Source of the DNA: Eledone cirrhosa
Taxonomy: Eukaryota
Direction: 5' to 3'
NCBI GenBank assembly: GCA_964016885.1
Contig: OZ024753.1
Span: 4,030,001-4,094,000, forward strand
Length of the DNA: 64,000 nucleotides
Shown: piece by piece, positions 16,253-55,670 of the stretch
Position numbering within the stretch: the stretch's first letter is position 1
Layout of the letters: each line of letters starts with the position of its first letter
Notes under the pieces: model-generated
Told to the model about the DNA's origin: nothing
The model's database searches: none
The model's input: the letters and a program-made list of their open reading frames with translations, nothing else
Translations under genes and position numbers: made by a program

Positions 16253-16595
16253 AATTGGTGTTGGATGCTTAAAGCGTCCGTATGCGGCAGGCCGTATGAG
16301 CACTCAATGCCCTCGTAGAGCAGAGTATGATATCACAGAAAAAAGAGAATCAGTGTTGCGACGAAAGGAATTTATTGGACATATTACAAATGTTTCCCGG
16401 GCGACCAGCTCGAGGCACGATCGATACGATGATCATACCTGACTCTGAAATCAACACGGTCCTGGGATACGTTTCGATTCTACGAAGCAGATTTTCCATA
16501 TCGATCGTGCTTCGAGCTGGTCGCTCGAGAAACATTTGTAATATGTCCAATAAATTCCTTTCGTCGCAACACTGATTCTCTTATTTCTGTGATAT
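16253..16595 (-). mobile_element. fold-back element family A (tail + 97-bp inverted arms + 72-bp spacer) in (TA)n
   Basis: Arms 16330-16426 and 16499-16595 with ~4 mismatches; tail 16253-16329; homolog at 55324-55670. Confidence 0.85.
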
Positions 16596-18928
16596 ATATA
16601 TACATATATATATATAAATGTGTGTATATAAATATATATATATATATATATATATATATATATATATATATATATATATATATATATATATATATATATA
16701 TATATATATATATTTATATATATATATATATGTGTGTGTATGTATGTGTGTGTGTGTATATATATACATCGATTTACCTGACCCGATAGAAATTAAAAAG
16801 AATAAACGATTGCGAAGATTGCAAAATATATACACATTAAAGAAAAAAACTACATGAAAATCTCAATTTCACGAGAACATTTCCAATTTCTCTTAGCTCA
16901 CAGAAGATAACAGGTCTTGTCATGAGAATAAATAAATAAAAACAACCTCAAAAATTGTAACCAAATAACTGATATCTGAATAAGCACTATGCAAGTGTTT
17001 TCCATCAAATATGTGTATGGGTGTATGGATCAATTTTCATTCTTTGTAACAACAACTAAAAATACCTTTAGTGTAAGTGTTAATGTAATTATGCAACAAA
17101 AGCCATCTTCTTGGATATGGAATCTACAGGGAATTTCTAAAAATCGGTGATGATGTTTCAGCATTTGAGATACCCTATCTCATTTTCGTAGGTAAATAAT
17201 AGGTTTTTAACAAAAGAAAAAAAGCGAACAAACTCAACATTGAGATCAATCATTCAGAGGTGTCATCCAAATGCGACACCAACAATAGTGCATATTTAAT
17301 ACAGATCAACATATCTTATTAGTAAGAAGTGTATGTTGCTGAGAAGATAACAGGATTATTTTATTAGTCTATAATCTGATTCTGTATGAGAGTACAGAGA
17401 ACGATTTCTTCATAGGAAAGATAGTTTTGAAGTTAATTGTCTCAGAAAATAAAACACAGATTGTATAGATGTTTCAATATCTTAATTTCTAACGTCCTCC
17501 TGTATTTTGTTTCAGTTTATTCCGAATTAAATATCCCATTATCAGTACTTTGATTTGTGTGTTAACGTCTAATATTCACACAGAATTCACTGGATAATTG
17601 GATATATTAGGTCTATGGGCACGTTCCTCTTCTGAATAAACTATCCTCAGGAAACTTATATAAAGATTAAAATATATCTTTCAGTAACACACATTGAAGT
17701 GTTGAAACACTATTAAGTGGTGCGTTGGTTTGCGCTATCAAATCTGTGCGTAAAATCTTAAATTTCATTGAAATAAAACATCATTTAAGCTACCTAAGAT
17801 TTCAGTGTCTAAGTGGAATCGTAAATCTTTGCTAGTTACTGTTTTAAACATTACCGTGTATATTAATTATTAACTTAGACTACATCCCAATAATATAACT
17901 GTATAACTTTACCGTGGAATATATATTCTTTATAAAATAATTGTATGGTATTTCAATTGTATTGATGGCGGAGATGAAGGCTGCCTTGTAAGTCTCTATG
18001 AGTTCTGCCATTTCTGAGACAGTGCTATATCGTATATATACAGGATGATGTTTTATTTGCAAAAATACAAAACAAAAACTACTAATTTAAAATTCGTTTT
18101 AGAGCTACAGGATTTCTTCCTTCATTCACTCAATACCTGAACTATTATCTTGACCCATGCTGCACGATATATAGGTTTTATCAGTTTGTATCAAAAACAC
18201 CATACACACGATGGCCTTATGGAAAATAAATCGTAGAAATATTCAAAGATTTTAAAAAGATTGCCTTCTATTATTATATCAATAAAGAGTGGCTCTCGTG
18301 AGAAAATAACACGTAATGCCTGTAATGAAAACACTTCAGTTTACGGTGTAACGTGAATGTAATTACCAGTAAAGCAGATACATTCGATCGTTAATAATAG
18401 TATATTTTTCGGCCTATCTTACAACACAGCAGTATATACACACAATCAAGAATTCTCAACAACCTGAATCAAACTGGAATAGCAGAAACAAAGATATATA
18501 CTTAAATTATTGGGTATATATTAACCACAACATTCACATTTGATTACGATGGAAATGAAAACAGATTCATCCAAGATAACAAGAAGGTTTGACATAGCCA
18601 GAATAGATATTCAGAGATGTCAGGAAATAAGGGTATAAGTAGAGCTTTCTGCAAAAGTAGGAACATTGCATGAAAATATAGATTATGCTAGGATATTCTG
18701 TATCGAGAAACAACCACAATTATCGCTGCAATGAAAAGAAAACCCGAAGTGTAAATGACATCACAGTAGCCCATTTGGAGAACATCCATTAGGTGTATTA
18801 TTTATGTGTGTGTATATGTGTGGGCGTGAGTGTCTGGATGCGTATCATTATACACGCATACACACACACGCATTACACACATAATGTGTTTACCATCATT
18901 CCGTTGGTATACATCTATTACGTAATTT

Positions 18929-18986
18929 ACACCTGAAGATGTCACCATGTTCTTACGTAACGTGGCCGCTGAAATGTGCATAGTGT
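18929..18986 (+). ncRNA. minimal type-I hammerhead ribozyme motif (partly degenerate)
   Basis: ACAC-CTGAAGA-[tgtcaccatgtt..aacgtggccgct]-GAAA-T-gtgc-A-TA-GTGT; first stem II pair mismatched; AATAAA follows. Confidence 0.6.
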
Positions 18987-20678
18987 TTGCTGGAATAAAT
19001 AAGTAAGGAAATTAGTTTATAACATATAGTTTATAACATATAGTTTATAATATACAGCGCTAGAAGATTTTACTTTACATCCCTTCCAAATGGCGCATAC
19101 AATGAATTAAACGTTATTTTATTCTTATAAGTGTATTATGCAATATATAGTTTTATGTCCTACATAACGTTCCACACACATACACACACCATTAAGCGAT
19201 CGATTATTGAAAACATTTCAATTTAAATAGTCAAGCCTCCTTGTTGTTTTCATAACACGATGCTTTTACTTTTCAAAATCGATGTTTTATCATTTCTAGT
19301 TATAGGGAAATACTTCAAGTAAGTGCCGATATCATAATCATTTGTTCGTTAAATCTATTTCCCGTGTTTTAGTTTCTTCTGCTGGTTCTCTTTGTTGTAG
19401 TTGGTGATCTTTGGGTTGTTGTCTTAAATTAATTATTTCACAATAATTTGAACAAGCATTTGCATGATTAGAATTATTCACACACATTGCATATAATTAC
19501 CAGAATTGGTCAAACTCTATACCACTTGCCCTGTTATAATTCCCAGCTGTGAATATATATTCAAACATCACATGAGTAATTCTATTCCTAGTCAACGGGA
19601 AATCAAACAGCTTTCATGCCCTCTTGTTATTCACCAATCAACGGCTATCCATTATGAAGGATCTCAATGAGCTATATATATATATACAAATTTCAACAGT
19701 GTCTCAACCCTTTCGCCAAACAGTACAAAGACATTCAAATGTGCCCGAAGCACCATAGCAGGCCTTTTATATTAAAATAAAACAACCAATCATTGTATGT
19801 ATGTATACATTCAAAGGAACACAAACATGATCAGGCGATATTTACAATGACTCGGGAAAATAATACCCCCTTATAGGAGACGGTAAAATCACTTATTTTT
19901 ACAATTAATGCATTGGATGTGTCCAAGGCAGGAAGTTACCTGAGTAGTGTATTGCATTATTTGGTTTCATTCACATCAATTATGGGTTCAAACGTTAAAA
20001 AGGTTCTACCAGTAGACATGAATTTGTTTCGATGTTGAAGAATAATTATCAAGATTGACAACATCTATATGAATAAACACATTGCTAATATTGATCAGTA
20101 CTATTCCAATACTACTGAGGAATAATTTCTTATTTCTCGGTACAATTTAATATATCTTCGTGTAATAAATAAACACAAAATCCTGTTACGTAAATGTTTC
20201 AAATATTACAAGTTGAGAATTGAAGTGATTTTAGCCGGTGTTTAGCATAAAAAATGAAAATTCGTAAAATATTTCAGAATAAAAATGTTTTCAATTTGAA
20301 TGGAATTGAAATTTTAACATGGATAATAAACAGAAAAATTCAATCTACTGTAGATTTGACGTGCTTATTATAAGATTACAAACATGATACACAATGAGTA
20401 CAGCTGTAGTTCATGGTAGTTGTCTGTACCTCAGAGACATATATGTCGGGAGATGAATAGGTAACCAGGCATTCCAGAGCGCCCATTTATTAATCCTTTG
20501 TTCTACCCCCCCCCAGTAATAATTTAAGACGGCCACTATTTTGTCAATATTCTCTAAAATTGACTAAAAAATAGCCTATGATTTTAGATAAGGTGGGTTG
20601 GAAATAGAGCGAATCCTATCAGAGTTTATGAAAATAAAACCTCAGAGGTTTAGCTATTAGACGTTGTTTCTCTAATAT

Positions 20679-20845
20679 ACAATAATTTCTAATTCCAGAA
20701 CAAGGTCAGTAATTTGGGGAGAGAAGCGGTAGATTATGTGTACACCAGTAGTTGAACTGTATCTCACTGTGTCTACCACCAAATGTTTGAAAAGCATAGT
20801 TGATATCAGCAGAATTGAATGTCAGCCTTTCATAATTTCGGGTAA
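20679..20845 (-). mobile_element. old degenerate SINE copy
   Basis: aataatttctaa..acaaggtcagtaatttgggg..accagta..tgaaaagcatagttga..gaattgaa is weakly similar to the reverse complement of the SINE. Confidence 0.5.
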
Positions 20846-54744: not shown

Positions 54745-54912
54745 GTAATAATAATAAATTTGAAGACTAAAATCCAAAGAGGGCTCGATAAGGGTAAATA
54801 TATATCAAATATAGAAGAACTGTAGAGCAAATATTTATTAAAATAACAGATTAAAGTTGAAGCAAAGAATCGCTGCTTTGCTTAAATTTTAATCTGTTAT
54901 TTTAATAAATAT
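54745..54912 (-). mobile_element. fold-back element family E (tail + 37-bp arms, 8-bp spacer) in (TA)n
   Basis: Arms 54831-54867 and 54876-54912; the same arm sequence occurs at 53557-53591. Confidence 0.75.
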
Positions 54913-55009
54913 ATATATGTATATATATATATATGGGAATGATCGAAGCATATTCTATATATTATATATATATATATATATATATATATATATATATATA
55001 TATATACAT

Positions 55010-55243
55010 ATAAGAAATAAGATTTCGCTTCAAGCATAGCTTTATACAAATATGTATAGAGATTTCGTATTCCTAAAGAAACACGGTTTTAGGAAGCCGT
55101 AGCTATGCAAACACCGGGGCTAACGCCCTCTGGTAGTGTCCAGCAGAAGGAAGGAGGACAACCGTCTATGAATTTCAGGCTTGACTGTGTTTGCATAGCT
55201 ACGGCTTCCTAAAACCGTGTTTCTTTAGAAATACGAAATCTCT
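55010..55243 (-). mobile_element. fold-back element family F (tail + 57-bp arms, 72-bp spacer)
   Basis: Arms 55058-55114 and 55187-55243 with one mismatch; between (TA)n and (CT)n(TA)n. Confidence 0.8.
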
Positions 55244-55323
55244 CTCTCTCTCTCTCTCTCTCTCTCTCTCTCTATATATATATATATATATATATATATA
55301 TATATATATATATATATATATAT

Positions 55324-55670
55324 ATATCACAGAAAAGAGGAGAATCAGTGTTGCGTCGAATCGAATTTATTGGATCTATTACAATCGTTTCTCTGGCGAC
55401 CAGCTCGAGGCACGATCGCGTGATGATCGAACCTGACTCTGATAGGAAAATCTGCTTCGTAGAATCAAGACGCATCTGAGGACCTTGCGATTTTCAGAAT
55501 CAGGTTCGATCATCACATCGATCGTGCCTCGAGCTGGTCGCGAGAGAAACGATTGTAATATATCCAATAAATTCCATTCGTCGCAACACTGATTCTCATT
55601 TTTTCTGTGATATCATCGAGTGCTCATACGGTCTACCGCATACGGACGCTTTAAGCATCCAACACCAATT
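55324..55670 (+). mobile_element. fold-back element family A, second copy in opposite orientation
   Basis: Arms 55324-55442 and 55494-55613, 51-bp spacer, tail 55614-55670; homologous to 16253-16595. Confidence 0.85.

Follow-up and report, generated by a model that had tools for sequence, protein, structure and literature searches.

The window, a stretch of 64,000 nucleotides from Eledone cirrhosa, contains eight fold-back elements, and these hairpin inserts are short terminal (pseudo-LTR, pLTR) pieces of Penelope-like elements (PLEs), mainly of the Hydra clade, and of ORF-less hammerhead tandem repeats. The pieces are inserted head-to-head in (TA)n tracts; each is probably formed when a PLE enzyme nicks both strands and makes two cDNAs from two fixed starts on the RNA. 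Two primed strands with coupling between their start sites are favoured by a near-strict rule of one tail per insertion and by an excess of copies whose longer arm is the tailless one. The class and the layout of these elements are already published (Arkhipova et al., 2013; Craig et al., 2021), and the origin of the inverted copies and one-sided tails of PLEs is named as an open question in passages of PMC8557442 and PMC11167929.

Inverted arms were confirmed at all eight elements by self-BLAST with microsatellites masked (E from 2e-9 to 4e-132; Table 1). All of them show a one-sided tail and seven show (TA)n on both flanks, and the layout (TA)n-arm/inverted arm-tail-(TA)n proposed in the initial annotation is therefore real. 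That annotation spoke of seven elements from about six families and listed eight, which belong to seven families (A-G). The elements at 16254 and 55328 belong to the same family, as it had stated (78% over 362 columns). In the element at 55007, the right flank is (TC)n followed by (TA)n. The element of family G, which is a young family, had been described as fitting only partly, and it retains about 25 bp of the tail and lacks a 3' (TA)n tract; the full tail is present in other copies of the family. A DNA search with six of the seven families gave more than 1,000 first-look candidates for each of the six.

Table 1. Fold-back elements, solo pieces and hammerhead cassettes of the window, with arm spans from self-BLAST.
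Feature	Position	Strand	Self-BLAST arms	Remarks
Solo family A tail	5633-5712	-		TA tracts on either side
Family A fold-back	16254-16591	-	16334-16591	Tail 16254-16333; tailed arm to about 16499, reaching the fixed 5' end of the family; tailless inverted arm 16500-16591; putative pLTR piece of a Hydra-type PLE
TA-flanked cassette	29456-29722	+		Complete minimal type-I hammerhead at 29623; no fold-back
Family G	35118-35410	+	35118-35384	99% palindrome 35118-35384, then cut-short tail to 35410
Family B fold-back	36790-36971	-	36873-36969	Tail 36790-36869; arms 36870-36971; hammerhead-like 3' half only
Family C fold-back	44044-44216	+	44051-44147	Arms 44044-44149; tail 44150-44216
TA-flanked cassette	45406-45571	+		Complete minimal type-I hammerhead at 45476
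Solo family B tail piece	45604-45647	-		TA tracts on either side
Solo family E piece	53556-53627			
Family D fold-back	54382-54565	+	54382-54497	Arms 54382-54497; tail to 54565
Family E fold-back	54745-54912	-	54835-54908	Tail 54745-54830; arms 54831-54912; putative terminal piece of a young Hydra-type PLE
Family F fold-back	55007-55239	-	55062-55239	Tail about 55007-55058; tailed arm to about 55186; tailless arm to 55239
Family A fold-back	55328-55669	+	55328-55609	Tailless inverted arm 55328-55442; tailed arm begins at the fixed 5' end, 55443; tail about 55613-55669

Families A, B, C and E are, judged by their sequence, pLTRs of PLEs of the Hydra clade, which comprises PLEs with a C-terminal endonuclease and includes Hydra-1_Obim (Craig et al., 2021, PMC8557442), and they are joined to ORFs. 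In L090 and L112 the family E pLTR is located 3' of a Hydra-type ORF, and in L366, L371 and L372 it leads into the ATG of the ORF. Family A is continuous with a Hydra-type ORF start in L330/L379, the family C pLTR leads straight into one in L404, and family B is located 3' of a Hydra-type ORF end in L137. This continuity bears out the PLE origin first suggested, and it does not support, as a general rule, the idea of protein-free pLTR-only parasites; only D and F, as tandem units, look protein-free. The family E ORF encodes 713 aa in L368, with at least 150 copies at 97-100% identity, and the ORFs linked to A, B and C show 29-52% identity to it (one or two loci per family). This ORF shows RWR for RWK, DKT, one CxCX5C and no CCHH, compared by eye with published definitions and alignments. 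Pfam gives neither RT nor GIY-YIG for it and a PDB search gave no match; a Neptune ORF that is Pfam-positive aligns with it collinearly over the span between RT and YIG motif (21%, E=1e-7). On these motifs and this match the family E ORF is placed as a putative single ORF of Hydra type with RT and C-terminal GIY-YIG. ORF-bearing copies share the fold-back layout, which was found in L099 and in four of eight long family E loci, and three further family E loci are partial tandems.

The parents share with the published Hydra clade (PMC8557442) the single ORF with RWK-like, DKT and CxCX5C motifs and no CCHH, the pLTR hammerhead, the (TA)n targets, the inverted 5'-truncated copy and the optional one-sided tail. 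They differ in that the families are new, since short probes found no match in the supplement of that paper, Naiad included, in that the tails have 45-85 bp here and 30-40 there, and in that very short fold-backs anchored at start sites are abundant here. Neptune families, recovered with PF01541 (150 scored of 10,597 candidates), were rejected as parents: they have their own pLTRs. Naiad was rejected as a partner, since the putative endonuclease of the linked ORFs is C-terminal and that of Naiad N-terminal, and several families show hammerheads, of which Naiad has no canonical one. The family C copy L210 has a Neptune-type ORF remnant upstream, instead of a Hydra-type ORF, and is probably a chimera; a GC-rich Neptune found through it was rejected as a parent, as it ends in a different pLTR.

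The outer ends, that is the arm end and the tail end, are fixed, and tabulation of the apex junctions in families A, B and C shows positions that differ from copy to copy. It is highly unlikely, then, that the fold-backs are self-propagating protein-free families in which a whole hairpin would be transcribed and then copied again by a PLE enzyme acting in trans. Families D and F are indeed ORF-less tandem hammerhead units, B shows no common upstream sequence in 30 of 30 pattern matches, and no same-strand ORF was found within 1.5 kb upstream in the four family G copies examined closely. However, apexes differing in nearly every copy indicate that a hairpin does not pass intact from one copy to the next, families A, B, C and E are apparently pLTRs of ORF-bearing elements, and the promoter-like region upstream is missing from short copies. 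An origin as TA-targeting DNA transposons of MITE or Helentron type, with asymmetric inverted repeats, deserves hardly any credence. Such transposons would match in small size, inverted repeats, TA flanks and high copy number, but the apexes are variable with 5' truncation, hammerheads are present and the elements are continuous with ORFs of RT and GIY-YIG type, a continuity which refutes this origin for E. In agreement with the initial annotation, which had set these elements apart from MITEs, the tail is outside the repeat and there is neither a fixed TIR pair nor a fixed interior.

The copies met incidentally are 93 fold-backs of families A, B, C and E. TA flanks are present on both sides of 66, on one side of 24 and on neither side of three; 90 of the 93 thus have TA on at least one side, in line with the (TA)n targeting proposed. 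Target-site duplications are hidden by (TA)n, and neither empty-site joints nor records spanning a whole element were found among the read alignments listed. Since short-read contigs break at these elements, the inversions could be taken for assembly or library artefacts at TA tracts, an explanation of next to no probability: the arms diverge from one another by up to 30%, the fixed ends recur on many chromosomes, and joints between opposite strands occur at many family E positions in raw reads from two other samples. One tail is present in 76 of the incidental fold-backs, two in two and none in one, and 14 are unclassed. Exactly one tail, as in complex insertions of EN+ PLEs with an inverted 5'-truncated copy at the 5' end, was therefore found in 76 of 79 classifiable unselected fold-backs, compared with at most 0.5 under independent choice (P=1e-19), and the earlier statement that the inverted copy lacks the tail stands.

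Among 144 one-tailed copies, the fixed 5' end is held by the tailless arm only in 45, by the tailed arm only in 17, by both in 15 and by neither in 67, and ordinary truncation is therefore common. The difference between 45 and 17 is significant (P=5e-4), in a set of which about half of the copies were chosen by 5'-end patterns, and the incidental ones alone give 14 tailless and four tailed. The more frequent extension of the tailless arm to the fixed end speaks for priming of both strands at two RT start sites and against simple snap-back. A longer tailless arm cannot arise when a tail-primed cDNA is copied back, so that the proposal in the initial annotation, a cDNA which snaps back and self-primes, is disfavoured by tailless arms that often hold sequence missing from the tailed arm. 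In a fuller version, unlikely on these counts, the elements have a PLE origin and the inverted arm is a product of self-priming, in which the end of the cDNA, or of an antisense template, folds back and is extended by copying itself as far as the arm end, and later loop inversion scrambles which arm is longer. This version agrees with the short inverted matches and small palindromes present at many apexes, accounts for one tail per insertion equally easily and, with an antisense template, has been put forward for PLE inverted junctions in passages of PMC3846280. However, if synthesis starts at the tail, random inversion of the loop can bring the ratio toward 50:50 and not beyond. Direct copies which stop at the arm end, with the tail absent, are also common, and the arm end is therefore a start site of its own. 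One copy, L091, is head-to-head with equal ends.

In the two-strand reading preferred here, a PLE enzyme would nick both strands of the TA tract, and two cDNAs would be primed, each at its own fixed site on the RNA; these sites presumably coincide with the tail end and the arm end. Both cDNAs would extend toward the RNA 5' end and be joined there through short inverted matches. The template RNA is likely uncleaved, because copies retain sequence upstream of the cleavage site. The shortest class may arise when priming takes place within the 5' pLTR on the transcript of the element itself, or on a short 3'-pLTR transcript; it would halt at the transcription start, without the upstream promoter, and would mostly be a dead end. 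A broader proposal, held with somewhat less than even confidence, is that a PLE enzyme dimer primes both strands on one uncleaved RNA, each from a different one of the two fixed sites, and that priming in the 5' pLTR gives promoterless stubs ending at the transcription start, so that thousands of MITE-like hairpins record the integration mechanism and give dsRNA against their parents.

The 5' ends pile up in one 10-nt bin in 73 of 120 arms of family B and 34 of 65 arms of family C; longer parents exist despite this pile-up (8/30 in A and 6/30 in C). Family C shows a TATA box about 31 nt upstream of the pile-up, and initiator-like words coincide with the ends in A, B, E and one Neptune pLTR, both features having been read by eye. 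Since the short copies stop at initiator-like sites, they are likely copies of PLE transcripts at their 5' end. If a cap had been copied, an extra G would be expected; it is present in only 36 of 88 cases (A 6/22, B 10/27, C 18/29, E 2/10), and the other arm can account for some of them. No RNA record was listed for this stretch, a result that carries no information on expression. In single folds, the hairpin that follows each start site varies from family to family, and those of B and E are weak. Hammerhead cleavage was rejected as the cause of the family A 5' end, with 0 genome matches.

Penelope and Poseidon, as described in passages of PMC3846280 and PMC2377424, show the same head-to-head inverted pLTR with the tail on one of them, a promoter within the pLTR and palindromes at the junction. 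The copies treated in passages of Arkhipova et al. (2013) and Schostak et al. (2008) are few and mostly long, and self-priming was suggested there, whereas the counts obtained here favour two primed strands. In the in vitro passages of Frangieh et al. (2024, PMC11167929), both strands are nicked and then extended by the PAc Poseidon protein, and synthesis begins at two internal sites, one on each side of the tail, which also stands against self-priming; the target is AT-rich, as here, and the RNA template uncleaved, as is likely here. That enzyme belongs to another clade, and those in vitro passages show neither joined head-to-head products nor one-site-per-strand coupling. A literature search, outside of which fell most subscription journals, Repbase and Dfam, found no description of PLE fold-back stubs anchored at start sites or of twin priming by PLEs. 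The thousands of very short natural products allow snap-back and twin priming to be counted against each other, and the 5'-end pile-up predicts transcription starts. Family E, which is young, would be a good first Hydra-clade enzyme candidate for assay. Such hairpins can be mistaken in annotation for MITEs or microRNA precursors.

Full hammerheads rebuild in families C, D, F and G in a descriptor search, and family E shows intact stems I-III with core U4 changed to A, detected only with a relaxed core. No canonical core was found in A or B by this search, so that the expectation of hammerheads in the family consensuses holds for part of them; the canonical hammerhead of Hydra-clade PLEs is present in the C parent and, in a difference from that clade, is not found in the E parent, A or B. 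A full-core parent of family B was rejected: of 59 matches, the 20 inspected are apex junctions, chimeras and one parent-like copy without canonical spacing. Four hammerhead-half motifs had been claimed, of which those at 55.17 kb and 36.9 kb stand and those at 16 kb and 44 kb are wrong. The first is the true 3' core of the family F ribozyme. The one at 36.9 kb is conserved and followed by a stem-III-like hairpin, but two family B parent copies rebuild no canonical ribozyme. The 16-kb motif is a private variant, 46 of at least 53 family A matches having one other spelling in common, and the 44-kb motif is on the inverted arm, antisense to stem II; family C nonetheless has a full type-I hammerhead, within which both arms of the 44044 copy end.

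Families D and F are ORF-less tandem units of about 400 bp and about 300 bp, with a canonical and a minimal type-I hammerhead, respectively, and on this composition appear retrozyme-like. Dimers and partial tandems are present, and long arrays are absent among the copies met. In D, the canonical hammerhead is some 200 nt upstream of the apex of the 54382 copy. The canonical hammerheads of both families were matched in 0 of 500 shuffles; among minimum-energy folds of five ribozyme regions, none was significant but one (z -2.0). The two families resemble non-LTR retrozymes (Cervera and de la Pena, 2020, PMC7229834; Li et al., 2026, bioRxiv 10.64898/2026.07.22.740005) as PLE-linked ORF-less tandem type-I hammerhead units of 300-400 bp, and differ in ending at PLE-type arm and tail points and in inserting head-to-head; the word "inverted" is absent from PMC7229834. 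An Rfam scan of the window gave no hammerhead, just microsatellite-driven miRNA matches, among 150 of 213 matches listed. Each arm of the 35118 palindrome contains a complete type-I hammerhead (35298 on the + strand and 35204 on the - strand), and these two were absent from the initial annotation. The complete hammerheads reported in TA-flanked cassettes were recovered as minimal ones, and the cassette at 45406 is partly related to that at 29456.

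Inverted arms of all eight elements named in the initial annotation were returned by self-BLAST after masking of microsatellites, which also bore out that the two family A elements belong together. The proposed layout holds in seven elements: the tail is on one side only, and both ends are flanked by TA tracts. The eighth, family G, shows a shortened tail. The window has 32% GC and 193 TA runs, short or long, in a host genome of 3.0 Gb. These inserts are a real feature and constitute new families of a known kind: an inverted truncated copy, an optional tail and a (TA)n bias are already described in PMC8557442.

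Fold-back families and other repeats in the window; first-look candidate figures are not copy numbers (40 scored per family in A, B, C, D, F and G)
Feature	Window position	Description	First-look candidates in genome
Family A	16254; 55328	fold-backs	3044
Family B	36790	fold-back	4573
Family C	44044	fold-back	3347
Family D	54382	fold-back	1203
Family E	54745	fold-back	
Family F	55007	fold-back	1493
Family G	35118	inverted arms, shortened tail	1059
Shared TA tract	54350-55684	four families in 1.3 kb	
Tiny hairpin	36768-36797	family B tail tip flanking a short TA run	
Inverted pair	32342-32438 / 32906-32998	97 bp, 91%	
Broken LINE-like ORF	31268-32449		
Palindrome	15214-15297	84 bp, imperfect (77%)	
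SINE-like repeat	34788-34974; 61045-61229; 62417-62589; 5300-5456; 10177-10313; 46160-46266	several copies	
RTE-like LINE piece	39108-39666; 58454-59008	two copies	

An unselected 200-kb sample (20 stretches, five of them adjoining the window) contains no piece of A, seven of B, three of C, two of E and five G-like, and five of these are fold-backs; by these counts the window is rich in fold-back pieces yet not unique. Different families accumulate within one TA tract, in the window and likewise at the genomic loci L002, L004, L096 and L305; since every insertion keeps TA on both flanks, the target is renewed. The tiny hairpin is perhaps a fold-back reduced to about 10 bp. Opposite-strand joints are present at many family E positions in raw reads of two other samples and support the fold-back class, not the window loci themselves; no empty sites were found in reads of other samples among the matches listed.

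The fold-backs very probably originate from Penelope-like elements (PLEs). In a genome search for GIY-YIG, with the best 150 of 10,597 candidates scored, several matches are Neptune-type ORFs with RT and GIY-YIG and with pseudo-LTRs (pLTRs) of their own. An ORF-bearing Neptune-type element (L099) has a head-to-head insertion in which one arm bears a tail, and another locus (L091) is head-to-head with equal ends. A GC-rich Neptune-type family (L291-L305; 1683 first-look candidates), whose 3' UTR is long and C/A-rich, also has a hammerhead-like core of its own. Family E is the terminus of a different PLE, in which an ORF is followed by a long 3' UTR and then E (L090, L112); its ORF has at least 150 protein matches, all scored ones being 97-100% identical. 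A 135-bp tandem duplication is present in this 3' UTR in L371, L372 and L090. Among eight long E loci, four have the head-to-head form with a single tail, three are partial tandems whose tail continues to the ATG about 45 nt on, and one has an inverted tail piece. The 713-aa family E ORF in L368 contains RWR, DKT, YRDD and CxCX5C, lacks CCHH, and is collinear with a Neptune ORF at 21% identity; Pfam and PDB searches did not recognise it, and its motifs appear to match the Hydra clade as defined in PMC8557442. Families A and C lead into a Hydra-type ORF start (L330 and L404, respectively), B sits after a Hydra-type ORF end (L137), and A2, a relative of A, after Hydra-type ORF remnants (L110, L119, L126). 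One C copy behind a Neptune ORF remnant is probably a chimera. Families D and F form tandem units without an ORF, of about 400 and 300 bp, respectively, and no same-strand ORF was found within 1.5 kb of G in four copies closely examined. Four G loci (L424, L427, L428, L430) show a diverged family C tail between (TG)n tracts, some hundreds of bases before the ribozyme, and family G may be non-autonomous and of composite make-up. In four chimeric copies (L389, L281, L271, L282) the ribozyme region comes from one family and the arm and tail from a second (C and E, C and B, or the 29456 family and B), a structure suggesting that templates were switched among PLE RNAs or that insertions were nested in pLTRs.

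A complete type-I hammerhead was predicted in C from junction fragments, and the genome contains 790 occurrences of the 30-mer so predicted (reversed control, 0). In a descriptor search, C, D, F and G each gave a canonical type-I hammerhead and E a variant in which A replaces U4; A and two B parents gave no match, and shuffling gave 0/500 matches for any sequence tested. Among the motifs annotated as hammerhead-like, that at 55.17 kb is a true 3' core by descriptor search and family comparison, that at 36.9 kb is a conserved half whose full hammerhead the same search did not find in the two B parents, that at 16 kb is a private variant, and that at 44 kb is antisense to stem II. B parents (L137, L288, L019, L280) differ by G or A at two positions of the would-be 5' core, for which a decayed core and RNA-level changes are both possible. 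The U4 variant in a young, abundant family indicates that a canonical ribozyme may be dispensable for spread. Sequence preceding the cleavage site is retained in copies of families C, E, F and G, which makes an uncleaved RNA template probable. Retrozymes are described in PMC7229834 and in a 2026 preprint (bioRxiv 10.64898/2026.07.22.740005).

Comparison of 30 loci of A, 30 of B and 20 of C shows two fixed outer ends that run into TA, an apex position that varies in nearly every copy, and arms either of which can be the longer; this variation implies that the hairpin formed at each insertion and was not inherited as a unit. Arms were paired automatically over all retrieved loci, and exclusion of central matches picked by a family's own DNA query left 93 incidental fold-backs from families A, B, C and E. 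Exactly one tail is present in 76, two tails in two and none in one; 14 could not be assigned. TA flanks are on both sides in 66, on one side in 24 and on neither in three. The one-tail share (76/79) compares with at most half under independent end choice (P=1e-19). According to PMC11167929, a PLE protein nicks and extends both strands, starting on uncleaved RNA at two internal sites bounding the tail. For inverted junctions self-priming has been proposed (PMC3846280), and the initial annotation likewise invoked cDNA snap-back. Snap-back on tail-primed cDNA needs all sequence to lie on the tailed arm. This is disfavoured by 144 copies with one tail: in 45 of them the tailless arm alone has the fixed 5' end, in 17 the tailed arm alone, and in 15 both arms, while 67 have it on neither arm (14 tailless versus four tailed in incidental copies alone). 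Later inversion of the loop would drift to equality and not to an excess of tailless-arm copies. Direct copies without a tail are also common. Taking these results together, we favour with fair confidence priming of both target strands from coupled start sites. By eye, a similar short hairpin seems to lie after both start sites in several families.

Short copies stop at one site in each family: a single 10-nt bin holds the starts of 73/120 incidental B arms, and another those of 34/65 C arms, as taken from BLAST ends, which apex palindromes can blur. Longer parents read through the fixed 5' site in 8/30 matches of A, 6/30 of C and 0/30 of B. By eye, a TATA box precedes the fixed end of C by about 31 nt, and the fixed ends of A, B, E and one Neptune pLTR are on initiator-like words; we infer that these ends are candidate transcription starts. 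A pLTR-internal promoter is described in PMC2377424. An extra G at the 5' end, expected of a copied cap, is present in 36/88 copies; C alone shows it clearly, and the other arm accounts for part of the signal. Because the ATG closely follows the tail, a cDNA primed at the tail on mRNA of the element itself, and ending at the transcription start, would be just such a short stub. In the ORF-bearing Neptune family (L154:994-1429, L180, L316), short copies of the pLTR also begin at the initiator-like site, one of them being a one-tailed fold-back (L154), and thus the short class goes beyond Hydra elements. Neither start-anchored stubs nor twin priming in PLEs came up in the literature searched; what is added here is an argument from counts for coupled priming of two strands, together with the anchoring of the shortest copies at a start site.

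Other repeats are present in the window. The inverted pair at the end of the broken LINE-like ORF, with no flanking TA tracts, is possibly a LINE end and its inverted piece. The palindrome is old and lacks long TA flanks. The abundant SINE-like repeat is presumably an octopus SINE, which points to an octopod host, and an RTE-like LINE piece is also found.
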